From assembly GCA_937991535.1 (NCBI GenBank), contig CALKHN010000013.1, positions 1-64,000 of the forward strand: a stretch of DNA of 64,000 nt, given 5' to 3'. Below, piece after piece: positions 4,110-20,188 of this stretch. Position numbers and translations under genes: made by a program. This DNA comes from an uncultured Sphingobacteriales bacterium. GTDB taxonomy: Bacteria; Bacteroidota; Bacteroidia; Chitinophagales; Chitinophagaceae. A model generated the notes under the pieces. It was given only the letters and a program-made list of their open reading frames with translations, did not search any database and had not been told where the DNA came from. Within the stretch, counting starts at the first letter, position 1. Each line of letters opens with the position of its first letter.

Positions 4110-4167
4110 CCAGGTTCGGCATGCCCGTGTAATATCATTTAAATGCTATTTTTCTAAACAAAAAGAT

Positions 4168-4584
4168 ATGGAACCGCATATAGCACATTTATTAAAGAAA
4201 AACCAGTTAAGTATAACAGACAGCAGAAGAAAAATACTGGAACTCTTTTTACAAAGCGACAGCGCATTGGCACATCACGATATAGAATCAAAAACGGAAG
4301 AAAAATATGACAGGGTAACGGTATACCGCACCCTGCAGACATTTATGGAAAAAGGTATTATCCATACCATTCCTACTCCTGATAATTCTATTAAATACGC
4401 TTTATGTAAAGACAATTGTGAACAGGGTCACCACCATGATGATCATGTACATTTTATCTGCACCAGTTGCGGCACAACTTGCTGCCTCGAAGATGTGCAT
4501 GTGCCGGAAATTAAATTACCACGCGGATACAAAACCCGTCAGACAGAAGTTGTTGTAAGTGGTTTATGCAAAGCATGCAGTTGA
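4168..4584 (+). CDS. Fur family transcriptional regulator
   Basis: Winged-helix N-terminus. HHHDDHVHFICTSCG and C-terminal CxxC metal sites. Confidence 0.8.
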   Translation: MEPHIAHLLKKNQLSITDSRRKILELFLQSDSALAHHDIESKTEEKYDRVTVYRTLQTFMEKGIIHTIPTPDNSIKYALCKDNCEQGHHHDDHVHFICTSCGTTCCLEDVHVPEIKLPRGYKTRQTEVVVSGLCKACS

Positions 4585-5624: not shown

Positions 5625-5739
5625 CAATTAAATAAAATGCCGGCTGTTACGTTTAACTGTAAATGGTATGACATTTGCAAAAGAAGGTTATCCTTAAGTC
5701 CTTCACAAGAAGCCCCTGATACCATTTTAATTAAACGCA

Positions 5740-6168
5740 ATGGATAAAAAAACACTTATCAACTCTAAGGACGGAAGAACAGTAAGATACAGGGAACAGG
5801 ACCCTCTTGTAATGGTAGTAGATAACGACCCCGACACCATAGTGTTGATTTCCGCTTTGTTAAAAAACATGGGATATAGAGTGATAGAAGCATCGAATGG
5901 CGAAAAAGCATTGAAGCTATTGGGAGCGTATAGCCCTGAAATAATTTTCATGGATGTGAATATGCCCGTTATGGATGGATATACGGCTGCCAGACACATC
6001 CGGCAAATGCCCGCTCCCTTCCATTCAATTCCTATTATTGCCCTGGTGGCAGATGCCGGGAGATCAGATTATGAAAAATGCAGGGCGGTGGGCATGGACG
6101 ATTATATTTCAAAGCCTTTCCGACTGGAAGAAATTCAGGGGAAATTAAATCTTCCTCCGGCAGCATAG
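5740..6168 (+). CDS. Stand-alone response regulator receiver domain protein
   Basis: Receiver-domain acidic pocket (VVDND...D), conserved MDGY and K. No output domain. Confidence 0.8.
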   Translation: MDKKTLINSKDGRTVRYREQDPLVMVVDNDPDTIVLISALLKNMGYRVIEASNGEKALKLLGAYSPEIIFMDVNMPVMDGYTAARHIRQMPAPFHSIPIIALVADAGRSDYEKCRAVGMDDYISKPFRLEEIQGKLNLPPAA

Positions 6169-6560: not shown

Positions 6561-7220
6561 TTACCCCAAAAACCAGTACGCCATCCATTGACTTAAAAAG
6601 CCTGCAATCAATCCAAATACAATATCTCCCATCCGGTGATCGGAAACAATAAGACGTGAGGTACAGATTAGTCCTGAAATAAAAATGGCAATTGCCAGGG
6701 GAATATTTACAAAACCGGAAGAAGTATATAACAGTACAGTAAATAAACCCATTAAACCGCCGGCGCCTGTTGCATGCATGCTTATTTTAAAAAAAATATT
6801 CGCAACAAAATCAATGATCACAGCAAGAAAAATACCAAGGCTCATTTGAGCCATAATTACGGGTATACCCGGTTTATTCCTAAACACATAAAAGGTCCAG
6901 AAAAAAAAGACCATACTTATGGCATACAGTATAATCCTTTCTTTCTGTGTTTTGAGATAAACAGACTGAACGAAACCCAATGCTTTACATAAAAGCACAG
7001 ATAACAGAGGAAAAAAGATACTATTAATAATATAAATAAAAAGCACCTGCGTTTTCGCCAGTACATTCATTCCAATAAAATATTCGGGATCAATGTAAAC
7101 AAGGTAAATGGCCATATATAATCCAACCAGCAATGGATGGAAAAGCCAGGAAATAAAATGAGCGCCTGTTCTTACCACCGGTAATACAGTGGCGGTATCA
7201 GGCGCAAAGTGGCTATTCAT
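6561..7220 (-). CDS. PAP2 superfamily phosphatase (membrane)
   Basis: Multi-TM protein with the motifs SMHATGAG (PSGH-like) and SRLIVSDHRMGD (SRx5Hx3D). Confidence 0.6.
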   Translation of the reverse strand: MNSHFAPDTATVLPVVRTGAHFISWLFHPLLVGLYMAIYLVYIDPEYFIGMNVLAKTQVLFIYIINSIFFPLLSVLLCKALGFVQSVYLKTQKERIILYAISMVFFFWTFYVFRNKPGIPVIMAQMSLGIFLAVIIDFVANIFFKISMHATGAGGLMGLFTVLLYTSSGFVNIPLAIAIFISGLICTSRLIVSDHRMGDIVFGLIAGFLSQWMAYWFLG

Positions 7221-8701
7221 AATTGTTTTCTTAAGCGTGCTACCGGAATATTCATCTGTTCCCGGTATTTGGCTACTGTTCTCCGGGCAATATTATATCC
7301 TTTCTGTTGCAGCAATTCTGTAAGCCGTTCATCACTCAGCGGTTTTTTCTTGCTTTCTCCTTCTACCATATCACTTAATATTTTCTTTACCTCCCGTGTA
7401 GAAACTTCTTCACCACTGTCTGTACTCAAAGATTCGCTAAAAAAGAATTTAAGCCGGTATGTACCAAATTCTGTTTGTACAAATTTGCTGTTCGCCACCC
7501 GGCTTACCGTGGAAATATCCAATCCCGTACGTTCGGCAATATCTTTTAAAATCATCGGCTTTAACGTGGTTTCATCACCTGTAAGAAAAAATTCATACTG
7601 GTAATCCATTATAGCATGCATGGTAGTAAACAAGGTGTTTTGTCGTTGCTTAATAGCATCAATAAACCACTTGGCAGCATCAATTTTCTGTTTAATAAAA
7701 ATGACCGCTTCTTTCTGCCGTTTATCCTTTTTACTTCCCCGGTCATATTCTTTAAGCATATCTCTGTAACCCTCGCTGATACGCAGATCCGGCGCATTCT
7801 TCGAATTAAGTGTGAGTTCCAGTTTATTGGTATTATTATGAATAAAGAAGTCGGGAATAATATAGCTTTCTCCTTTATTGGTGTCGCCTACATTTCCCCC
7901 TGGTTTAGGATTAAGCCGGATGATTTGATTAATAGCAAGCTTAAGATCTTCGTCTGTCAGGTTTAACCCTCTTTGTATCTTTTCGTAATGTTTTTTGGTA
8001 AACTCATCAAAGTAATCCGAAAGTATACTGATCGCAATATCCACTTCCCGGCCGTCTTGTCTTTTCCGTTCCAACTGCAACAGAAGGCATTCTCTTAAAT
8101 CCCGTGCACCTATTCCGGGCGGATCAAACCGCTGTATCTCTTTTACCAGCAAAGCTATTTCTTCTTCAGTAGCAGCAATATTCTGCCGGAAAGCCAAATC
8201 ATCTGTAATGGCTCCAAAATCTCTTCTTAAATATCCGTCATCATCTATACTTCCCACTATATGCTCCGCAATTTTTCTTTGCTTTTCATCCAAATTCAGC
8301 ATACTGAGCTGTTCCAGCAAAGATTCATGAAAAGTACTTTCAATTTTAAAGGGCAGTGTTTGTTTTTCGTCAATTTCCGGGTAGTTCTCGTCTTTCAACC
8401 TGTAATCAGCTACATCATCATCTTCGCCCACATATTCACTTATATCAATATTATCATATTCATCCTCACTGCCTTCTGCCTCAAAATCGTCCTCTTTATC
8501 ACTTTCAAATTCATCAATCAGTTCTCCCTCGCCGGCATCGTTGTCTTCCTCATTTGCCTCAAGCGCAGGATTTTCTTCCATCTCTTCTTTAATTCTTTCT
8601 TCAAGGTTGGCAGTAGGAACCTGCAGCAATTTCATGAGTTGAATTTGCTGGGGTGATAGTTTTTGTAACAGCTTTTGTTGTAAACTCTGACTCAGAGCCA
8701 T
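7217..8701 (-). CDS. rpoN: RNA polymerase sigma-54 factor RpoN
   Basis: C-terminal RpoN box ARRTVAKYREQMNIP, an acidic region and a Gln-rich N-terminus. Start chosen at MALSQSLQQKL (ATG at 8701) rather than the ORF-track start at 8761. Confidence 0.9.
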   Translation of the reverse strand: MALSQSLQQKLLQKLSPQQIQLMKLLQVPTANLEERIKEEMEENPALEANEEDNDAGEGELIDEFESDKEDDFEAEGSEDEYDNIDISEYVGEDDDVADYRLKDENYPEIDEKQTLPFKIESTFHESLLEQLSMLNLDEKQRKIAEHIVGSIDDDGYLRRDFGAITDDLAFRQNIAATEEEIALLVKEIQRFDPPGIGARDLRECLLLQLERKRQDGREVDIAISILSDYFDEFTKKHYEKIQRGLNLTDEDLKLAINQIIRLNPKPGGNVGDTNKGESYIIPDFFIHNNTNKLELTLNSKNAPDLRISEGYRDMLKEYDRGSKKDKRQKEAVIFIKQKIDAAKWFIDAIKQRQNTLFTTMHAIMDYQYEFFLTGDETTLKPMILKDIAERTGLDISTVSRVANSKFVQTEFGTYRLKFFFSESLSTDSGEEVSTREVKKILSDMVEGESKKKPLSDERLTELLQQKGYNIARRTVAKYREQMNIPVARLRKQL

Positions 8702-9170
8702 AGTCGAATATATAATTATTGGAAACCCCGTAAATAATTTGAAAAAATGATGCGCCTCCACAAAAATCAGGCCGTAAATTTAAGTACAAAACGTATTAAC
8801 ATCACTTATATCGCTTTGTTTTATTTGGATGTTAACAATTCTTTCTTATTTGAACCGGTCATTTCATCACTTTAACCGGACTGGCATCACCTTGCAAAAG
8901 ACAACCGGAGGGAACAAACCAGGGTTGAAGCAATACGCGATAATAAGCATTTCCAACCTACATTTTACAATTGTATGATCACCCAGCTAACACTAAATTT
9001 CTTCTTCTGCCGTTTATTTAAAAAAGGAGTTTTGTAATTGACCGGCATTTCCGTATGCACCTAAAACCGGTTCTTTTATTTTTGAGCAAACATTTAATTT
9101 TAGCGTGGAAATTTTATATTTAGGCCTGGCACTTTTGAATGTATAAACCCGATGCTGTAAATAACAGATT

Positions 9171-10914: not shown

Positions 10915-11847
10915 CTAAGGCTTCAATCCTTTCAAAAATCCACTGATCAGTTGTAGTGCATTCGTTATTACCTGCTCATTACCTACCGGTATTTTTAAAT
11001 AGGTTTGACCTGAAACCCCATCCTTCTCCGTTAGTTTGTCAACGAGTTGCTTTGTACTTTCGGGGTTGCTGAGCGATTCTGCCAGTTGCTCAAAAAAAGA
11101 AAAGCCTGTTTGAATAACCTGGTCTTCGGCAGATACGGCTTTTGTCTTTTCCTGTTCCGGCTCAGGAATATCGCCCGTTATTTCACGGGTAAACAACTCC
11201 TGTTGTGCGGGTGCGGTAGTCATTTCTTTCTCCGCGTTCCTTTCCGCGTTTTCCGATATGGATTGTTCCGTTGCACCAGGTATCCCGCCGGTAACCGATT
11301 CAACCGATTGCATAAACCGGTTGAATTTTTGTCCGCCCAGGAAAATATTATTATCGCCGGCATCGGTTGAAAGAAACACCCTGCAGGCAGGATCATTATT
11401 GAAATGTGCAAACAGGTCCTGCCTGTTTTTGGAGGGTATGCTGCCATGAAGGTATTGATATCCGATTCCTTTGTCGGTAAGCATTTGCGCTACCAGCCTT
11501 GTCATCCGTTCCCACTGACTGAATATTACTACTTTTTCTTCCTTCATGTCAATGATCTCATCTAATATATTTTCCAGTTCGTCTAACTTGGTTTGGTAAT
11601 TGGTTTCCTGGTCAATAATATAGGTGCTGTCGCAAACCATACACATCATGTTCAGGTTGTTCAGCAAACGCTGCCTGTCTTCTTTCTTCAGGAACTTCAT
11701 TCTTTTCCACTTATGCACCAACTTGGCTACGATCTCTCTAAATTCGTCATGCATTTGCATTTGCTCGTCCGTTATGGGGATAAGCAGGTTTTTATCCATG
11801 CGGGAGGGCAGTTCTTTCAGCACTTCTTTTTTGGTACGCCGCAGCAT
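10915..11847 (-). pseudogene. Decayed fragment of an SNF2-family helicase (C-terminal helicase domain only, frameshifted)
   Basis: LRRTKKEVLKELP and FSQWERM...YLHGSIPSKNRQDLFAHFNNDP match SNF2 helicase-C motifs. They are paralogous to the intact gene at 46825..50589. The N-terminal ATPase half is absent. After FLSTDAG the expected GGVGLNLTAAD/DRxHRIGQ motifs are lost, and an alternative frame shows IIFSW..NRLNRL remnants. Confidence 0.6.
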
Positions 11848-12085
11848 TACATCTTTTAGCAGTACGCCAATTTTATTAAGATCTTTATATCCTGTAACTT
11901 TTCCGGATTCATCCGTTATCTGATGCTGCTGTAAAAAATGGTTAACGTCAGCTATTAATTAACAATTCTTCCACTCTTTTCCGTTCGTTTGAGCGTGACC
12001 GTAAAAAAAATATTCTCAAAAAACTTGCACTATCAAAAAAATATCTCAACCTTTGCACCGCAAAACAAATTATAAATAACATTAC

Positions 12086-12175
12086 ATGCAGCAAACAAAG
12101 CAACAACTAAGATCAAAAGAATTTAACCGCCCGGGCCATGATGCCGGTTGCGGGGCATGTAATGCTGATGAATAA
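12086..12175 (+). other. 29-codon small ORF (MQQTKQQLRSKEFNRPGHDAGCGACNADE), candidate leader peptide
   Basis: ATG at 12086, TAA at 12173. Overlaps segment 1 of an alternative hairpin set and is followed by an intrinsic terminator. Confidence 0.3.
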
Positions 12176-12205
12176 GTTGAAACAACAGATTCGATCAAAT
12201 ATACG

Positions 12206-12233
12206 CCCCGCAGGAAATTGCGGGGTTTTTTAT
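12206..12233 (+). terminator. Rho-independent terminator (CCCCGCA-ggaaat-TGCGGGG + T6)
   Basis: 7 bp GC-rich stem, 6 nt loop and a U-tract, seen directly in the sequence. Confidence 0.7.
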
Positions 12234-12446
12234 TTTAAGTGAAGTTATAAAATAAAAATGCTGAAGTCTTTAGAACATAAACGATTTACGATTCCAATGC
12301 GGAATACACAGCTATCATTATCTGTACGCTATTGGCATGTGCAGGCGAACAACAGCATTGTGCCTGCAGGCAATAAAGAGGATAGCAAACATAAACGACC
12401 GTGGTATAACTATACCTAGCCTGTATTTAACAGGCACAATGAAAGG

Positions 12447-12480
12447 AACCCGGTTGCAGTAAACGACCGGGTTTTTTGTT
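12447..12480 (+). terminator. Rho-independent terminator (AACCCGGT-11nt-ACCGGGTT + T6)
   Basis: 8 bp stem followed by TTTTTT, immediately upstream of the tRNA array. Confidence 0.65.
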
Positions 12481-12489
12481 GAATTACAA

Positions 12490-12561
12490 GGTTCGCTGGT
12501 GTAACGGTTAACATCACAGATTGTCGATCTGTTGCTATGGGTTCGATTCCCGTGCGAACCG
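12490..12561 (+). tRNA. tRNA-Asp (anticodon GTC)
   Basis: Acceptor GGTTCGC/GCGAACC. D-arm GTGT..ACAT. Anticodon stem ACAGA/TCTGT with loop TTGTCGA. T-loop TTCGATT. No encoded CCA. Confidence 0.7.
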
Positions 12562-12566
12562 CTGAA

Positions 12567-12639
12567 TGTTGGATGGTGCAATGGTTGAGCATTTCAGCAT
12601 TTGAAGCTGAAGATGCTGGTTCGAGTCCGGCTCCAACAA
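12567..12639 (+). tRNA. tRNA-Gln (anticodon TTG)
   Basis: Acceptor TGTTGGA/TCCAACA. Anticodon stem TCAGC/GCTGA with loop ATTTGAA. T-arm GCTGG-TTCGAGT-CCGGC. Confidence 0.7.
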
Positions 12640-12646
12640 CAAAACG

Positions 12647-12720
12647 TAGGCTTTAGCTTAACCGGTAAAGCGCCACACTGCGAATGTGGAGAAATGAGTT
12701 CGGGTCTCAAAGTCAACCAA
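12647..12720 (+). pseudogene. Degenerate tRNA-like element (Arg-like, anticodon GCG) without a convincing acceptor stem
   Basis: Good D-arm GCTT-AACCGGTA-AAGC. Anticodon stem CCACA/TGTGG with loop CTGCGAA. T-loop TTCGGGT. No 7 bp acceptor pairing could be found. Confidence 0.3.
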
Positions 12721-12742
12721 TGCGACCTGGTGTAAGGCAATA

Positions 12743-12815
12743 TGGCCCGTAGCTCAATGGTTAGAGTATCCGGCTTTTAACCGGAGGGTTGTGAGTTCGA
12801 GTCACGGGGCCAACG
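12743..12815 (+). tRNA. tRNA-Lys (anticodon TTT), with irregular acceptor/T-arm
   Basis: TAGCTCAATGGTTAGAG D-arm. Anticodon stem TCCGG/CCGGA with loop CTTTTAA. The 3' acceptor strand CGGGGCCA carries an extra G relative to the 5' strand TGGCCCG. Confidence 0.5.
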
Positions 12816-12817
12816 AT

Positions 12818-12890
12818 GGACGAATAGCTCCAATGGCAGAGCATTGGTTTGAAGCACCAACTGTGCCGCTTCGAATCCGGTTTCGTCCAC
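12818..12890 (+). tRNA. tRNA-Phe (anticodon GAA)
   Basis: Perfect acceptor GGACGAA/TTCGTCC. D-arm GCTC..GAGC. Anticodon stem TTGGT/ACCAA with loop TTGAAGC. T-loop TTCGAAT with a C-C mismatch closing the T-stem. Confidence 0.7.
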
Positions 12891-12926
12891 ACAGAAAAAG
12901 ATTTTAAATACCGGTTAAGGCATAAA

Positions 12927-13412
12927 ATGGAACAACAGCAAAAATGGAGGAAATTATCCGGCGATAGCATTCAACAGCCGATTGAAGACGAAATAAGAAC
13001 TGTGATCATAAGAGAAAAAGAGATGGGGCATTCTTTAAAAGTATGCATTGGTACCGACAGCCAGGTAAAGGGCAGGGAAACTGAATTTGCCACTGTTATT
13101 GTTTTCATCCGGAAGGGCAGAGGCGGCTTCATGTATATACACAATGAAGTCACTGAACAAAAAATGAGCATCAAACAGCGGATGTTGCTCGAAGTGGCAA
13201 AAAGTATTGAAGTAGCTTATGCACTGTGCAGGATTTTTACTTTGTACAATGTAGATATGGAAGTACATGCTGACATCAACACCAATCCAAACTTTAAAAG
13301 CAATGATGCATTGAAGGACGCGATGGGGTATATTATGGGAATGGGTTTTGCGTTTAAGGCGAAACCGGAAGCGTTTGCAAGTTCAAGCTGTGCTAATAAA
13401 GTGGTGCAGTAG
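12927..13412 (+). CDS. RNase H-like YkuK family (DUF458) protein
   Basis: IGTDSQ motif, ~160 aa. The pattern TVIVF..KGRGG...HADINTNP...GF.FKAKPEAFASS matches my memory of YkuK/DUF458. The start was moved to the ATG at 12927 because the ORF-track start at 12849 overlaps tRNA-Phe. Confidence 0.55.
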   Translation: MEQQQKWRKLSGDSIQQPIEDEIRTVIIREKEMGHSLKVCIGTDSQVKGRETEFATVIVFIRKGRGGFMYIHNEVTEQKMSIKQRMLLEVAKSIEVAYALCRIFTLYNVDMEVHADINTNPNFKSNDALKDAMGYIMGMGFAFKAKPEAFASSSCANKVVQ

Positions 13413-13452
13413 AAATTGTCAATCCACTACTGGAAGTCTTGTTAATGCGAAT

Positions 13453-13650
13453 CACTCCTTAGCATAAAAGGAAGTGCTACAGAAAAAGTTACGGAGCCGC
13501 GGAGTGCCCGGAAGATGCCGTTCAGACTGTTCGTTTGAATGGACAGAATTTGCAGTTGCACCGAAATGTGAAAGACCAGAGTAGGGAAGCGCATTTACAG
13601 CCGGACTATTGCTACAAAAGAAAATATGGGTTCGAATTCCGTAGGAGTGA
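13453..13650 (+). ncRNA. ~200 nt tRNA-like element: paired acceptor ends, D-arm and T-arm, with a ~125 nt insertion replacing the anticodon arm
   Basis: 5' CACTCCT-TA-GCAT-AAAAGGAA-GTGC (acceptor 5' strand, U8A9, D-arm). 3' ATGGG-TTCGAAT-TCCGT-AGGAGTG-A (T-arm, acceptor 3' strand exactly complementary to CACTCCT, discriminator). Direct repeats GCTACAGAAAAAG / GCTACAAAAGAAAA flank the internal segment. Confidence 0.35.
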
Positions 13651-13917
13651 CAAAAAAATTAAAATAGACTTTACTATGCAAATAGATTGCAAAGTTGTGT
13701 TAGAGGTTTGTTTTGTCAAATAAAAACAATAGTTCTTTAAAATAAAATAAATTCCTTTTCCTCTTTGTAAAGGATGGAGGAGCTTCAAAAGCTTGCTTAA
13801 CGGTAAGATGGGAACCGGCATGTTAGCAGTAAACCGGATGTGTGTTTTAAAAGCATCATAGTGCAGCGGTAGTAACCGGCTGTATGCTGTTGCGCCAATA
13901 TGTATTTCCCACCACAC

Positions 13918-13952
13918 CCTGTGGGCCAGGGGTTCGAGTCCCTTTCCCGCCT
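13918..13952 (+). pseudogene. tRNA 3'-fragment (anticodon-stem 3' strand, T-arm AGGGG-TTCGAGT-CCCTT, acceptor TCCCGCC)
   Basis: Seen directly. No complementary 5' acceptor strand lies upstream. A D-arm-like GTGCAGCGGTAGTAAC lies ~40 nt upstream. Confidence 0.4.
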
Positions 13953-13954
13953 CA

Positions 13955-14014
13955 GGTGGGATAGCTCAGCGGTTAGAGCAACAGGCAATTGCGGGTTCGA
14001 ATCCCGCTCCCGCT
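13955..14014 (+). ncRNA. 60 nt mini-tRNA-like element lacking the anticodon arm
   Basis: GGTGGGA-TA-GCTCAGCGGTTAGAGC-AACAGGCAATT-GCGGG-TTCGAAT-CCCGC-TCCCGCT. Acceptor pairs with two G·U, canonical D-arm and T-arm, 11 nt linker instead of the 17 nt anticodon arm. Confidence 0.4.
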
Positions 14015-14018
14015 GAAA

Positions 14019-14060
14019 AGCGGGATAGTTCAATGGTAGAACACAACACTTCAGATGTTG
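14019..14060 (+). pseudogene. tRNA 5'-fragment with UCA (opal-reading) anticodon, no T-arm or 3' acceptor
   Basis: AGCGGGA-TA-GTTC-AATGGTA-GAAC-A-CAACA-CTTCAGA-TGTTG. The 5 bp anticodon stem is perfect and the loop is CTTCAGA, so positions 34-36 read TCA. Downstream sequence has no T-loop. Confidence 0.4.
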
Positions 14061-14371
14061 GGTAAAGAAGTACACCGCTTCTTAAAAAATGGTGACAACG
14101 TAAAGTAAGGATTGTTTATCGGCCGGTTTATAAAAGTGAATATGTTGTAAAGCATATTTACAGCAAAAATCCGGCAAGCCGGGAAATAGCCAGTATGTTC
14201 TGATTATAATAATGAGCAGCAACACATTTTCTTACATCGTTTTTCTGCTTTTGGGCAGGTAAAAGGTAAGAAACGGTATTGATTAACATTATATAACACA
14301 ACATCCGTTATTGAAGGTGATAAACAATCCGGACTTTAATATTACAAAAGACGATTTTAAAAGATATACTG

Positions 14372-15570: not shown

Positions 15571-16767
15571 ATGATTAATATAGAGGATAAGACCCAGAAT
15601 GAAATGGGCGAATTGATTACAATATTTCAAAGTTGTTGTGAATTTCATTTTACAAATAGATTTAATGAGCATAAATTTCTTTTTTTTGACGCGCTTCCCT
15701 TTGACAATTTGGGAACAAAATATAGTACGGAATTAGTTAGCAGAAGATTTAGTTGGAAAGGAACTCCCACTATTGTTAGGAAAATACATAAAGGCATAGA
15801 TGCAAAAGAGGGCGAAGAGGAATATAAATTTGAACAGAAATGTTGCGTAGATTACTCTTTCAAAATAGGTTCAATTATTTGTTCTCTAGTCAATAATAAA
15901 GAGCTGACGTTTATTGCTACTACATTTAGTCCTTTTGGAGTAACGTTTTTCCCCTCATTTCATGAATGTCAAACTCAAGTGTTAGATTATTTAACTGAAA
16001 ATAAGATCGAACTAAAAAAACAACTAAATCTCCTACATATTGACGAACAAGAATATGATAATTCGAATATTGGAGCTGCGTTTTTTACCAATGTAATTAG
16101 GAAGCAGCGAATAAACAAGCAAAGTAACAATGGAATAAGCCATTTAAATTATTATTTTGAAATAGCGAATTGTCATTGGCAAATCGAAGACTGTCTCTTA
16201 AAGGCCGCTTATTATTTTAAATATACAACTGATTTTTTATCAAAGAGAATTGATGAAAACGATGTTACCTTTTTTATGCCAACCATGAACAATTATGATA
16301 ATCAATATCTGCTTTATATAGGGTTCGGCTTTGAAAGAATCTATAGTTTTTGGGACAGAATGGCTATTCTATTGCACAACTTTGAGAATTTAAACCTTAA
16401 ACAAAAAAATCTGTCTTTTGATCGTTATATGCAAGGTTTTAAAAAAACAAATAATTGTAATCTGAATAAAAATTCTCAATATTCCTTATGGCTACAAGAA
16501 TTTTATGAAAAGTCATTTAAGCCAATGATTGAATATCGCCATAGGATTGTGCATTTTCAATTCACTCATGATTGGGCAGGAATATTAACCGCCAAGTTTA
16601 GTAGTATCGCACAAGAAAACATTACAAATAAAAATAGATTAGTAGAATTAAAAAAGGAATTCGAAGGGCTTCTTAAACTTTTACATGATAATTACTTGCG
16701 CTGTAAAGAAGGCTTCGTAAATGTGCTGAAATTAATAGACGAGATACAATTGTCTATATTAACATAA
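15571..16767 (+). CDS. AT-rich hypothetical protein with C-terminal Rx4H motif (HEPN-like candidate)
   Basis: 398 aa ORF visibly more AT-rich than its neighbours. C-terminal MIEYRHRIVHFQ contains R-x4-H preceded and followed by helical-looking segments. No other recognisable domain. Confidence 0.35.
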   Translation: MINIEDKTQNEMGELITIFQSCCEFHFTNRFNEHKFLFFDALPFDNLGTKYSTELVSRRFSWKGTPTIVRKIHKGIDAKEGEEEYKFEQKCCVDYSFKIGSIICSLVNNKELTFIATTFSPFGVTFFPSFHECQTQVLDYLTENKIELKKQLNLLHIDEQEYDNSNIGAAFFTNVIRKQRINKQSNNGISHLNYYFEIANCHWQIEDCLLKAAYYFKYTTDFLSKRIDENDVTFFMPTMNNYDNQYLLYIGFGFERIYSFWDRMAILLHNFENLNLKQKNLSFDRYMQGFKKTNNCNLNKNSQYSLWLQEFYEKSFKPMIEYRHRIVHFQFTHDWAGILTAKFSSIAQENITNKNRLVELKKEFEGLLKLLHDNYLRCKEGFVNVLKLIDEIQLSILT

Positions 16768-16770
16768 TGT

Positions 16771-17535
16771 GTGCATATGAAAAATATAATAACAGCATTA
16801 TCTGAAATCGGACAAAAGAAAAACATCAAAATACTTCACGCCTGCGAAACAGGTAGCAGGGCGTGGGGTTTTCCTTCGCCGGATAGCGATTATGATGTGA
16901 GGTTTATTTATATGCATGAGCGGGATTGGTATCTGTCCCTAAGTCAGCGCAAAGACACGATAGAATATATGGATGACGATCTGGACATAACAGGCTGGGA
17001 TCTGAAAAAATGTCTGAATTTGTTAAAGAAATCAAATGTCCCACTGATAGAACGGTTTCAGTCTCCGTTTGAATATTATGCAGTGCCGGGATTTAAGGAC
17101 GAGTTTAAAAAGTTGATAGAAAGTTATTATTCGCCAACGGCGGTTTTCTTTCATCACTATTCATTAGCCCATAAGTTTTGGGAGGACATGATAGGAAAGG
17201 ATGATTTTAAATTGAAAGGCTTTTTTTACCTGGTGCGGTCTTTACTTTCCTGCAACTGGATCATGCATGACAAAACTGTATTGCCCATGCATATAGAAGG
17301 ATTGATGCGGTACTCGGATGAAAAAATCAATACCCCGCTAAGGGAATTGGTGCAATTGAAGTTAGGTGTAGGCGAAAAATATCTTCATAGCAAAGACAGT
17401 GTAATGGAAGTATGGATATTGCAATTATTGGAAAAGCTGGAAATATCAAAACAAAAACTTGGTGTAAACCAAACTGATATGTCGTTATTAAATGAATTCT
17501 TTTTAAAAATGCTGTATGCAAAAGCTGACTATTGA
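16771..17535 (+). CDS. Pol-beta superfamily nucleotidyltransferase (COG3541 / RtcB-associated 'RlaP'-like)
   Basis: GSRAWGFPSPDSDYDVRF motif (G[S]x9-13DxD NTase signature). 3 nt from the previous gene and overlapping the next. Confidence 0.65.
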   Translation: MHMKNIITALSEIGQKKNIKILHACETGSRAWGFPSPDSDYDVRFIYMHERDWYLSLSQRKDTIEYMDDDLDITGWDLKKCLNLLKKSNVPLIERFQSPFEYYAVPGFKDEFKKLIESYYSPTAVFFHHYSLAHKFWEDMIGKDDFKLKGFFYLVRSLLSCNWIMHDKTVLPMHIEGLMRYSDEKINTPLRELVQLKLGVGEKYLHSKDSVMEVWILQLLEKLEISKQKLGVNQTDMSLLNEFFLKMLYAKADY

Positions 17536-18595
17536 CTGGATAAAAGATAATGGGTTATTGGTATTTGAAGCCATCACCGGTAGTCGGGCGTATGGGTTGG
17601 ATACTCCAAAATCTGACACAGATATTAGAGGAGTATTTGTATTACCCAAAAATATGTTTTATGGATTGGAATATACCGGGCAGGTTAATAATGCTACCAA
17701 TGATATTGTGTACTATGAATTGAAAAGATTTATAGAGTTGCTTTCAAAAAACAACCCGAATATACTGGAAATGCTGAATACACCAGAAAGCTGCGTATTG
17801 CAAAAACATTCAATAATGGACGGGATGAAGCCTGCACTTTTTCTGTCTAAGCTGTGCAAGAAAACTTTTGCTAACTATGCTTATACACAAATAAAAAAAG
17901 CATATGGATTGGAAAAGAAGATAGTGAATCCTGTGGGCGAAGAAAAAAAATCGGTATTGGATTTTTGTTTTGTGCATGAGGAGAATGAAGCTGTAGGATT
18001 AAAAGAATATATGAAGGAGAAAAATTTACGCCAAGAGAAAATGGGATTGACTGCTATAGCACATATGCGGGATTGCTACAATTTGTTTTATTCGGATGAC
18101 TTGCCATATTCCGGTATAATGAGAAAGGAAGAGTCGAATGAAGTATGCTTGAGCAGTGTACCCAAAAATGAAAAGCCCATAGCTATGCTTTATTTTAACA
18201 AGGATGGCTACTCAGTATACTGTAAGAAATACAAAGAATACTGGGGGTGGGTAGAAAAAAGAAGCGAGGAGCGATATCAAACAACCATGACCCATGGCAA
18301 GAATTATGATTCAAAAAGCATGATGCATGTATTCAGATTATTATTGATGGCAAGGGAAATAGCTACAGAAAGAAGGGTCAATGTTTGGCGGAAAGACAGG
18401 GAATTCCTGTTATCTATAAAAGAAGGAAAATTTGAGTACGATGAATTGTTGCAAAAAGCAGAAGCCTTAAAAGATGAGTTGCCAATCTTATATCAAAATT
18501 CGGATTTGAAAGCAGAACCGGATATTGACGTAATTGATGCCCTATTAATAAAAATGAGAGGAATGTATTACAATGAAGTAAAGGATCATCAGTGA
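17516..18595 (+). CDS. Pol-beta superfamily nucleotidyltransferase, paralog of the preceding gene
   Basis: GSRAYGLDTPKSDTDIRGV motif. 359 aa. Start overlaps the upstream gene by 20 nt. Confidence 0.65.
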   Translation: MQKLTIDWIKDNGLLVFEAITGSRAYGLDTPKSDTDIRGVFVLPKNMFYGLEYTGQVNNATNDIVYYELKRFIELLSKNNPNILEMLNTPESCVLQKHSIMDGMKPALFLSKLCKKTFANYAYTQIKKAYGLEKKIVNPVGEEKKSVLDFCFVHEENEAVGLKEYMKEKNLRQEKMGLTAIAHMRDCYNLFYSDDLPYSGIMRKEESNEVCLSSVPKNEKPIAMLYFNKDGYSVYCKKYKEYWGWVEKRSEERYQTTMTHGKNYDSKSMMHVFRLLLMAREIATERRVNVWRKDREFLLSIKEGKFEYDELLQKAEALKDELPILYQNSDLKAEPDIDVIDALLIKMRGMYYNEVKDHQ

Positions 18596-18748
18596 GCCGA
18601 AACCCCGAACGGAGCGTCGCAACAAAAGTACGATCAGTGCTCAAAAGCTGGTACAAAAAATCATAAAGTCACAAAAACTCCGGGCTCACAAAACAGCCCT
18701 TTGTGTTACCCCGTGTTATGTGCCTCCGTGGTTCAAAAAAGAAAAACA

Positions 18749-20188
18749 ATGAGCAAATTAAAAATAACAGGAAAAGAATTACGCGCTACCGGCTACCCGC
18801 AGGGCCCGGTGATCAGCGTGGCAATGAATGTGATGCAGAAACATTACAAGCATCACACAAAAGAGAAAGTGATGGAAATATTGAAGCGTGTATTGGAAAG
18901 CCCGGTACAATATAAAGATGATGTCGTATTGGCAGTGATAGCGGAGCAATTATTGCCCAAAGCGCCAAAAGAGGACGCAACAATTTCATTGAACAACCAG
19001 GGTATTCCGTTCAATGTATTCGGACAGGAACACATTGAAGAAGGCGCCCTGCACCAGATGTATGTCGCGGCTAAATTGCCGGTGGCAGTTGCGGGCGCAT
19101 TGATGCCTGATGCACACAGCGGTTATGGCTTGCCGATAGGCGGTGTTCTGGCAACGGATAACGCCGTGATACCGTATGGCGTGGGAGTGGACATTGGCTG
19201 CCGCATGTGCCTGAGTGTTTTCGATATCAATCCAAAAGAGCTTACGCAGCGGGAAACTTCTTTTGCAAGGGAATTAAATGAAGCCACCCTTTTTGGAAGC
19301 GGCGCACAGTTTGACCGGGCATCAGATCATGAAGTAATGGAACATGCCGCATTTTATGAAATGCCTTTGCTGAAAAGTTTGCACGAACGCGCATGGAAAC
19401 AATTGGGATCTTCCGGAAGTGGCAATCATTTCGTGGAGTTTGGCATAGTGGATATTGCAGAAAAGGATCCGGTACTGGGCATTGAACCCGGAAGTTATGT
19501 GGGATTGTTATCGCATTCCGGTTCCAGGGCGCTGGGTGCTACTATTGCAAATCATTATACTAAAATTGCGATCAGCAAAAGACGTTTACCACAGGATGCA
19601 AAAAATCTGGCGTGGTTGAATATGGATGAAGAAGCAGGAATAGAATACTGGATCGCCATGAACCTGGCGGGTGATTATGCTTCTGCATGTCATCACATTA
19701 TTCACGAAAAAATTTCGAAACAGTTAGGACGTAAACCTCTTAAGAGGATAGAGAATCACCACAACTTTGCATGGAAGGAACAATGGGAAGGTAAGGAGGT
19801 AATTGTACACCGTAAAGGCGCTACACCTGCCGGAAAGGATGTATTGGGCATCATTCCCGGCTCTATGACAGCGGATGGGTATATTGTAAAAGGGAAAGGC
19901 GAACCGGCGGCTGTTAACTCGGCTTCCCACGGCGCAGGAAGGTTGATGAGCCGTACCAGAGCAATGCAGTCCATTACCGAAAATGCATTGAAGCAGGAAC
20001 TGAAAAAGCATAGCGTGAAGCTGATCGGCGGAGGGCTGGATGAAGCGCCTTTCGCCTATAAGGATATTCATGTGGTAATGCAAAGTCAGCGGCAGTTGGT
20101 AGATGTGGTGGGAAGATTCACTCCCAGAATCGTAAAAATGGACGGCGCAAAGCATAAAACATGGGGAAAGAAGACAAGAGAAATGTAG
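18749..20188 (+). CDS. rtcB: RNA-splicing ligase RtcB (3'-phosphate/5'-hydroxyl RNA ligase), long form (~479 aa)
   Basis: NHHN (IENHHNFAWKE), SHGAGR (ASHGAGRLMSR) and several His/Cys metal ligands. The ORF-track start is a TTG at 18701. The ATG at 18749 (MSKLKITGKEL) is preferred. Confidence 0.9.
   Translation: MSKLKITGKELRATGYPQGPVISVAMNVMQKHYKHHTKEKVMEILKRVLESPVQYKDDVVLAVIAEQLLPKAPKEDATISLNNQGIPFNVFGQEHIEEGALHQMYVAAKLPVAVAGALMPDAHSGYGLPIGGVLATDNAVIPYGVGVDIGCRMCLSVFDINPKELTQRETSFARELNEATLFGSGAQFDRASDHEVMEHAAFYEMPLLKSLHERAWKQLGSSGSGNHFVEFGIVDIAEKDPVLGIEPGSYVGLLSHSGSRALGATIANHYTKIAISKRRLPQDAKNLAWLNMDEEAGIEYWIAMNLAGDYASACHHIIHEKISKQLGRKPLKRIENHHNFAWKEQWEGKEVIVHRKGATPAGKDVLGIIPGSMTADGYIVKGKGEPAAVNSASHGAGRLMSRTRAMQSITENALKQELKKHSVKLIGGGLDEAPFAYKDIHVVMQSQRQLVDVVGRFTPRIVKMDGAKHKTWGKKTREM

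Follow-up and report, generated by a model that had tools for sequence, protein, structure and literature searches.

A conserved RNA with two tRNA-shaped modules lies upstream of a slipin-RtcB operon in Chitinophagaceae and related bacteria

What are the tRNA parts crowded into positions 13918-14060 of contig CALKHN010000013.1, from an uncultured Sphingobacteriales bacterium (assembly GCA_937991535.1)? The window analysed is the first 64,000 nucleotides of this contig. A first-pass annotation had read the stretch as three abutting tRNA pieces, one of them a 60-nt mini-tRNA without an anticodon arm, and had proposed either scars of integration at a tRNA gene or functional tRNA mimics. We found that 13918-14060 is the core of one conserved structured non-coding RNA of ~400 nt (~13731-14135, + strand), which is encoded just 5' of a slipin (Band-7)-RlaP-RtcB RNA-repair operon and folds into a 5' rod domain, two tRNA-shaped modules, and a compact 3' pseudoknot. 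With a probability of roughly 55%, we propose that it acts as a Y-RNA-like, tRNA-mimicking cofactor of the slipin/RlaP/RtcB module.

One conserved RNA in place of three tRNA pieces

The tRNA-like signal at 13918-14060 is far above chance, and its parts lie where the first-pass annotation had placed them: the 3' strand of an anticodon stem, a T-arm, and an acceptor 3' strand at 13918-13951; a tRNA scaffold at 13955-14015 in which a short linker takes the place of the 17-nt anticodon arm (Rfam tRNA model, 45.9 bits; gathering score 29); and an acceptor 5' strand, a D-arm, and an anticodon arm with the loop CTTCAGA and the triplet TCA (14051-14053) at 14019-14060. The tRNA model also matches 14025-14083 (31.1 bits). 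The tRNA finder ARAGORN, proposed as a check, called no tRNA or transfer-messenger RNA (tmRNA) in 13918-14060; its only calls in the window are five tRNAs at 12490-12890. At a permissive threshold, the Rfam YrlA model (RF02553) gave two partial matches, 13920-13983 (32.3 bits) and 13989-14042 (37.3 bits), both in a permuted register of T-arm, hairpin of two acceptor strands, and D-arm. tRNA and YrlA were the only Rfam families found at permissive thresholds, and the 5' domain and the pseudoknot matched no family.

Relatives were collected by searching with the slipin protein and keeping one genome per species, which yielded 80 loci (71-93% protein identity). Nearly all are labelled Chitinophagaceae or unclassified Bacteroidota, apart from a few metagenome-assembled genome records with implausible labels; the window's nearest relative is Agriterribacter. 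Alignment of the upstream DNA revealed a conserved block from ~13786 to 14135, and upstream sequences from 75 loci added a conserved motif and a hairpin 5' of it, starting at ~13731. A profile search with nhmmer recovered the block at full length in ~75 of the 80 loci, always on the same strand and a few hundred bases 5' of slipin. Because conservation spans ~13731-14135, the annotated limits were too narrow and enclose only the middle third of a larger element.

The conserved acceptor register was read from a neutral MAFFT alignment of the relatives (A1), with sequence counts over 73. RNAalifold pairs each acceptor 3' strand locally with the next acceptor 5' strand and also returns two T-arms, two D-arms, an anticodon arm, a downstream hairpin, and several 5' helices, with compensatory changes in 55 of the 68 predicted pairs. 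Acceptor hairpin 1 is paired in 89.7% of alignment cells; the inner pairs of hairpin 2 are mis-registered in A1, so that its cell count there is unreliable. Jointly, the two hairpins have a covariation score of 0.62 versus 0.22 when shuffled, a value that none of 500 shuffles reached, and at least six of the seven pairs form in 61/73 sequences for hairpin 1 and 60/73 for hairpin 2. Both are present in the minimum free energy (MFE) fold of the window, the second as 7 bp capped by a GAAA tetraloop.

We rejected the register of the mini-tRNA, which joins 13955-61 to 14008-14: it is paired in 60.3% of cells versus 58.3% when shuffled, 48 of 500 shuffles score as high, and just 10/73 sequences form at least six of its seven pairs. 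All seven form in only three sequences, and the window is one of them because its two acceptor hairpins happen to resemble each other in sequence. The three abutting pieces are thus not conserved units. An acceptor stem built from a cloverleaf's own 5' and 3' ends is not kept across relatives, and the RNA is not a canonical tRNA, as neither this register nor the anticodon identity is conserved. The tRNA that the Rfam model reports here therefore sits in a register without conservation among relatives, a reason for caution in annotation.

A covariance model, R1 (153 positions, 39 pairs), was built on 13914-14063 and its equivalents in relatives. Family members score 82-149 bits and the window 140.8 bits. 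The YrlA model is known to mistake dimeric tRNAs for YrlA (PMC4201824); with R1, genuine tRNAs in the tandem arrays upstream of these members reach at most 66 bits and those of metagenomic arrays ~70. In the R1 alignment of 73 members, 97.1% of cells hold standard pairs, versus 72.4% when shuffled and 40-48% with slid partners; both sides change in 34/39 pairs, and all eight helices are supported, in agreement with the neutral A1 analysis.

A scan of metagenome contigs used the RNA pattern only, namely a T-loop, a D-loop, and a T-loop at a spacing too short for a normal tRNA; in 34 of the loci that it returned, the R1 score is at least 80 bits. A slipin homologue (35-75% identity) lies immediately 3' on the same strand in 23 of the 25 loci with at least 600 nt downstream, mostly followed by RtcB, and one of the 25 has an RtcB-like gene directly downstream. 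In 38 metagenomic sequences that took no part in model building, 96.5% of cells are paired versus 65.2% when shuffled, and 35/39 pairs show compensatory changes. Two lower-scoring matches (L123 and L141, in the 60-75-bit range) proved on checking with Rfam to be ordinary tRNA arrays, i.e., tandem-tRNA false positives. Another contig (L142, Ga0207156_10608) carries a two-module-like element at 4163-4317 (R1 84 bits, GC 0.63) within an array of ~33 tRNA genes, and no slipin was detected in the 1.3 kb 3' of it.

These results bear on the idea that the pieces are relics, either of tandem tRNA genes in decay or of site-specific integration that duplicated an att core. They do read as tRNA parts, and with a tRNA array 1 kb upstream an origin of the RNA from tandem tRNAs is plausible. 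Yet compensatory changes keep a non-tRNA register in two independent sequence sets, the pseudoknot and the 5' domain are conserved as well, and the position of the RNA relative to slipin is constant across diverged lineages. The tRNA-like core has no matching direct repeat at the far end of the operon. Neither an integrase nor a TROVE domain was found among 30 open reading frames (ORFs) scanned with Pfam, which include every ORF of at least 180 aa within ~8 kb of the RNA on both sides, and the missing integrase agrees with what had been annotated. The locus is flanked by housekeeping genes (ruvB, rpoN, and a Mur ligase). In view of the covariation, the lack of a far-end repeat and, among the ORFs scanned, of an integrase and TROVE, and these flanks, we reject scar or decay as an account of present function and give it next to no likelihood. 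The island at 14.3-20.2 kb, once suggested to be cargo, is the RNA-repair operon itself; in relatives, slipin (usually with RtcB) follows the RNA.

Two tRNA-shaped modules in permuted register

Module 2 has the shape of an entire tRNA, circularly permuted so that the chain begins and ends within the variable loop, between positions 43 and 44; its 3' half stands 5' of its 5' half, and the two acceptor strands are linked. Its Levitt 15-48 pair covaries (A:U in 35, G:C in 32, and other combinations in 6 of 73 sequences; A:U and G:C in 15/39 each in the metagenomic set), which is good evidence for an L-shaped fold in this permuted wiring. In module 1 the Levitt pair is G15:C48 in 58/73. U8, A14, G18 G19, A21, the UUCRAnU T-loop, and G53-C61 are almost invariant in both modules.

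Circularly permuted tRNA genes of Cyanidioschyzon merolae and permuted two-piece tmRNA genes yield mature products of conserved identity. The RNA resembles them in that a T-arm and an acceptor 3' strand precede the 5' half and a loop joins the acceptor strands, but it has no conserved anticodon and no encoded CCA. The anticodon-like loop has 7 nt in 68/73 sequences and keeps Y32 U33 and R37 A38, while its triplet is hypervariable, with at least 26 kinds in 73 sequences (GUU 10, GAU 8, UAG 7, GAG 6, GAA 5, and others). By inspection of column counts, the triplet looks about as variable as the unconstrained linker. UCA occurs in the window only and the nearest relative has UCG, and this diversity gives no support to the earlier suggestion of a suppressor or selenocysteine-like anticodon. 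The D/anticodon half of module 2 comes in two sequence classes, and even close relatives have swapped one for the other. Recent gene conversion of module 2 from local array tRNAs was considered and rejected, as the best local matches span the D-arm alone.

A permuted precursor could in principle mature into a tRNA if RNase P and 3' trimming opened the 7-bp acceptor hairpin of module 2, CCA were added, and RtcB joined the ends in the variable loop. The product would be a stress-induced tRNA whose anticodon differs by species and which in this genome would read UGA with UCA. In favour, the four arms of a tRNA are all found in module 2, in permuted order, and the operon encodes RtcB; the YrlA of M. 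smegmatis, whose acceptor stem has 7 bp, is cleaved by RNase P and gains CCA in vivo (PMC4201824). The unconserved triplet argues against such a product, as do acceptor sequences that are free to vary, the missing CCA, and a module 1 that has no anticodon loop; no motif like a bulge-helix-bulge was noticed on reading the sequence, for which no dedicated search was made. We consider this route very improbable.

The same loop might instead be a bait or sensor, with the anticodon-like arm of module 2 serving as a decoy for anticodon nucleases. Cleavage would leave a 2',3'-cyclic-phosphate end and titrate the toxin, or signal damage that switches repair on, and RtcB would reseal the RNA. Such a role fits the preserved anticodon-loop architecture, the swapping of the triplet and even of the whole D/anticodon half among close relatives, and the presence in nearby arrays of classic nuclease targets (Lys, Asn, Gln, His, Arg, Asp, Glu, and Tyr). 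In Salmonella, tRNA 5' halves with a cyclic phosphate are reported to activate RtcR (PMC7790460). However, with a triplet that looks about as variable as the unconstrained linker, neutrality fits as well as an arms race; Pfam and NCBIfam identified no regulator with a sensor domain among the operon proteins; and module 1 and the 5' domain are left unexplained. We regard a bait or sensor as possible but doubtful as the main function.

Flanking domains and gene neighbourhood

The tRNA-like core is framed by two further structured regions (Table 1). The H-type pseudoknot occupies the place at which the third annotated piece should have had its T-arm. Its loop nucleotides 3-6 pair completely with the segment after the A-rich strand in 72/75 sequences; when loops and tails were shuffled between sequences, 33.7 +/- 2.6 were complete (maximum 40). 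Stem 2 occurs as CACC/GGTG (32 sequences), CATC/GATG (11), CAGC/GCTG (10), CGCC/GGCG (4), and others. For the 3' tail that follows, RNAalifold on A1 gave no consensus helix. On the other side, the 5' domain (13792-13911) is paired in 90.4% of cells versus 79.1% when shuffled (maximum 80.2), with three to six pair types at many pairs. Support for the P0 hairpin is moderate. In relatives, the 5' motif directly follows either an upstream gene's stop codon or a tRNA-like T-arm element located upstream, and it may be a promoter or a 5' leader. An ~85-nt unit at 13652-13740 (+; …GATTGCA…GGTTTGT…ACAATAGTTCTTTAAAAT) precedes the main RNA, is present in two to three copies in loci L001, L045, and L080, and may be a promoter or boundary cassette.

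Table 1. Coordinates of the RNA, its parts, and neighbouring genes in the window.
Feature	Position	Strand	Evidence and remarks
Five-tRNA array	12490-12890	+	ARAGORN, Rfam 42-61 bits; Asp-gtc, Gln-ttg, Arg-gcg, Lys-ttt, Phe-gaa
RNase H-like PF04308 protein	12849-13412	+	Pfam; in ~60/80 related loci
5' motif AGTTCTTTAAAATA..., start of the RNA	13731-13747	+	Upstream sequences, 75 loci
P0 hairpin	13752-13782	+	GTTGATG...CATCAAC in relatives; arms variable but complementary, by eye; in window MFE fold
P1 hairpin CTTGCT-TAAC-GGTAAG	13792-13807	+	RNAalifold on A1; GC/CG/UA exchanges
5' rod domain	13809-13911	+	RNAalifold
P2, long irregular stem	13809-16/13904-11, 13818-25/13896-903, 13829-32/13890-93, 13835-37/13887-89	+	
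P3 hairpin	13838-59	+	Enclosed by P2
P4 hairpin	13861-85	+	Enclosed by P2; near-invariant AGTGCAG..GTAGTAAC..CTGTATGCT
Module 1	13918-13985	+	YrlA topology; partial Rfam YrlA match, 32.3 bits; all four helices covary
Module 1 closing "anticodon" stem, 4-5 bp	13918-22/13981-85	+	
Module 1 variable-loop nucleotides (five)	13923-27	+	
Module 1 T-arm	13928-44	+	
Module 1 acceptor hairpin, 7 bp	13945-51/13955-61	+	Loop TCA
Module 1 U8 A9	13962-63	+	
Module 1 D-arm	13964-79	+	A26 at 13980
Module 2	13986-14060	+	Partial Rfam YrlA match, 37.3 bits; helices covary
Module 2 linker CAATT, variable loop (positions 44-48)	13986-13990	+	T13990 forms the Levitt pair with A15 of D-loop 2
Module 2 T-arm	13991-14007	+	
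Module 2 acceptor hairpin	14008-14/14019-25	+	Loop GAAA
Module 2 U8 A9	14026-27	+	
Module 2 D-arm	14028-42	+	Followed by A26
Module 2 anticodon arm	14044-60	+	Loop CTTCAGA, triplet TCA 14051-53
H-type pseudoknot	14066-14094	+	Loop-tail covariation
Pseudoknot stem 1	14066-70/14078-82	+	AGAAG with CTTCT; loop TACACCG
Pseudoknot A-rich strand	14083-90	+	
Pseudoknot stem 2	14073-76/14091-94	+	CACC with GGTG
3' tail	14095-14135	+	Consensus TAAAGCCGG..TT.TTT.CCGGC; conserved in A1
Slipin/Band-7 (SPFH), 367 aa	14372-15475	+	Pfam PF01145; stomatin matches in the PDB
398-aa ORF	15571-16767	+	Between slipin and RlaP; no Pfam or NCBIfam match
Two RlaP-family nucleotidyltransferases	16771-17535, 17516-18595	+	Pfam PF10127; in a subset of related loci
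RtcB RNA ligase	18701-20188	+	Pfam PF01139, NCBIfam; 3' of slipin in most related loci

Slipin comprises a stomatin-like core (residues 137-346) and an extra ~135 aa at the N-terminus. These 135 aa have no sequence relative in the PDB and no Pfam or PDB match to the stomatin-type N-terminal membrane region, and the protein had no phage matches. We infer that slipin is a stomatin-like oligomer without a recognisable N-terminal membrane region and that the RNA is its partner. The 398-aa ORF looks like variable cargo, as almost all related loci lack it.

Arrays of 1-10 tRNAs on the + strand lie 5' of the PF04308 gene or of the RNA in ~45 of 60 related loci (L009, L043, L044, L048, L062, and others). 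Their recurring members (Lys, Asn, Phe, Gln, His, Arg, Ile, Met, Ser, Tyr, Trp, Asp, and Glu) are typical targets of anticodon nucleases, and the arrays resemble a stock of spare tRNAs that goes with the repair module. A leader at 12250-12480 (+) is 67-70% identical in L024, L061, L043, L028, and L018 and ends with a terminator-like hairpin and U-run (12449-12480), 10 nt before the first tRNA of the window's array; this hairpin may be an attenuator that silences the array.

A second conserved RNA, which we call element U, lies just 5' of the main RNA (13448-13665, +; ~200 nt). It is ~80% identical in seven related genome loci, with weaker matches in three metagenomic loci, and neither ARAGORN nor Rfam called it. 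TCACTCC pairs with GGAGTGA right after a T-arm, giving an acceptor and T-arm of normal topology. A D-arm-like and a variable-arm hairpin are present too, and ~110 nt are inserted at the site of the anticodon arm. A second, internal GGAGTG copy could form an alternative pairing. Farther upstream, rpoN (sigma-54) lies at 7217-8761 (-), ~5 kb away, and between it and the tRNA array are a truncated C-terminal fragment of an SNF2 helicase (DrmD/ZorD-like; 10915-11847, -) and a small ORF with its own terminator (12080-12236, +).

Relation to known RNAs and a possible role

YrlA RNAs are tRNA mimics whose genes accompany those for Rsr and RtcB (PMC4201824; Wang et al. 2018, 10.1101/312249). The RNA described here shares with them the order of closing stem, variable nucleotides, T-arm, loop-closed acceptor stem, and D-arm, which module 1 matches exactly, as well as the invariants of the tRNA elbow, the covarying Levitt pair, and the linkage to RtcB; the tRNA-like domain of YrlA is thus present twice. 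It differs in having two tandem modules, the second with a full anticodon arm, together with the ~130-nt 5' rod, the 3' pseudoknot, and slipin as its partner protein. Its matches to RF02553 stay below the gathering score of 69, and no Ro60/Rsr (TROVE) gene is nearby among the 30 ORFs. The Ro-binding helix GNCGAAN0-1G is absent from the window RNA; in relatives the motif occurs incidentally, at varying positions, in 9/75. The RNA works like the tRNA-like domain of YrlA yet lacks three of the four features of YrlA membership. The Y-RNA likeness noted in the first-pass annotation was the right lead, although the Y-RNA-like unit is the T-arm, closed acceptor hairpin, and D-arm, not the mini-tRNA. 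Its proposal of mimics linked to the RtcB and nucleotidyltransferase genes stands as regards the association and the tRNA mimicry, which recur in relatives and metagenomic loci.

A second comparison concerns the b7a-tRNA, short for "band 7-associated tRNA", a predicted, unvalidated element beside Band-7 and RtcB that Wang et al. 2018 (10.1101/312249) cite from Burroughs and Aravind 2016; YrlA, too, occasionally adjoins Band-7 (same source). By the description in that citing paper, the likeness lies in the context, a tRNA-like non-coding RNA beside a Band-7/SPFH gene in an RtcB repair neighbourhood, and the difference in the architecture, since the b7a-tRNA is described as strongly resembling authentic tRNA, whereas the tRNA shape here is permuted, doubled, and set in an ~400-nt RNA. 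Rfam holds no b7a-tRNA family.

Full-length slipin homologues with 35-39% identity are present in E. coli, Burkholderia, and a record labelled Subdoligranulum, each with an upstream tRNA-like RNA of differing architecture. The E. coli island lies between the DUF3811 gene and lysC in 1425/5426 complete genomes (RNA in L081 at 5684-5870, CP061233.1) and encodes, in order, the RNA, slipin, a zeta-toxin-like protein, and an RlaP-type nucleotidyltransferase, without RtcB. The E. coli RNA, read by eye, has a T-arm and a closed 7-bp hairpin; the Subdoligranulum RNA has two T-arms and one closed acceptor hairpin. In Burkholderia stagnalis (L083, 5029-5292), an acceptor/T-arm minihelix and a normal-register cloverleaf (Rfam tRNA 42 bits, loop UGAAAAC) lie 5' of slipin; this RNA is probably what was called b7a-tRNA, and with its normal-register cloverleaf the slipin-linked RNA family is architecturally diverse. 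Candidate sigma-54 -24/-12 elements, recognised by eye, stand directly 5' of the RNA in E. coli (TGGCACGCTTCTCGCA) and Burkholderia (TGGCACGCTCCTCGCT), which suggests that RNA and operon are co-transcribed there.

Two further systems offer precedents. The ΔtrcR mutation of Anabaena jointly de-represses an otherwise silent tRNA array, rtcB, and a slipin gene, and translational stress lifts the repression exerted by TrcR (PMC10272220). Here, these three components form a physical cluster, whereas the Anabaena genes are dispersed and repressor-controlled, with no associated tRNA-like RNA reported. RlaP prefers nicked-tRNA substrates and adds nucleotides to the 5' half (PMC12776372).

We favour a cofactor of slipin and RtcB because the RNA is tightly linked to both, its tRNA-mimic structure covaries, and YrlA, Anabaena, and RlaP provide precedents. 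The RNA would be co-transcribed with the operon and then processed out, like the Y RNAs of Salmonella rsr-yrlBA-rtcBA, and would serve as the RNA component of a ring or cage formed by slipin in the cytoplasm, in the way that Y RNA partners Ro60. The 5' rod and the pseudoknot would anchor it to slipin, and the two L-shaped tRNA mimics would dock the tRNA-recognising enzymes RtcB and RlaP, so that tRNAs broken by nucleases could be caught and ligated again. The anticodon-like loop, which is exposed, might additionally act as a surrogate substrate or bait.

Several points weigh against this proposal. The scaffold role is drawn by analogy with Ro60 and Y RNA, and YrlA's own function is still unknown. 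Expression of the RNA and its binding to protein are predictions from sequence, and pair counts based on covariance models derive from alignments fitted to the model. A sigma-54 promoter search in the window gave nothing above chance, and the Bacteroidetes -7 motif TAnnTTTG is absent in all 75 upstream sequences. A scan for sigma-70 promoters and terminators yielded no informative match and predicted no terminator between the RNA and slipin. As for novelty, the RNA fits the loosely defined b7a-tRNA class by context, with a new architecture, as far as that class is known from the description in the citing paper. Finally, the 237-nt spacer between the RNA and slipin in the window has no conservation that would separate an independent RNA from a leader.

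In a cis-acting reading, the RNA would be a 5' untranslated region that controls transcription or translation of slipin-RtcB, e.g., through tRNA-recognising proteins or damaged tRNA. The constant strand and upstream position agree with a leader, as do the lack of a predicted terminator before slipin and the single candidate sigma-54 promoter ahead of RNA and operon in the proteobacterial homologues. On the other hand, the spacer in relatives is variable in length (230-500 nt) and unconserved, we saw neither an alternative terminator/anti-terminator nor sequestration of a ribosome-binding site, and the Y RNAs co-transcribed in rsr-yrlBA-rtcBA act in trans. We think a leader function unlikely.

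Our best reading is that the RNA would be a new structural variant of the predicted b7a-tRNA/YrlA class, the former compared by its description. As a cofactor of the slipin/RlaP/RtcB module, it would touch on two open questions, namely what the substrates of bacterial RtcB are and why tRNA-like Y RNAs travel with RtcB. It would be a second, structurally richer example, with two tRNA mimics, one of which has an anticodon loop, tied to a slipin scaffold in place of Ro60 and clustered with RlaP and arrays of apparent spare tRNAs. The covariation-backed model, which is absent from Rfam, could be used to annotate hundreds of Bacteroidota genomes, and the E. coli island could serve as a tractable model of the system.

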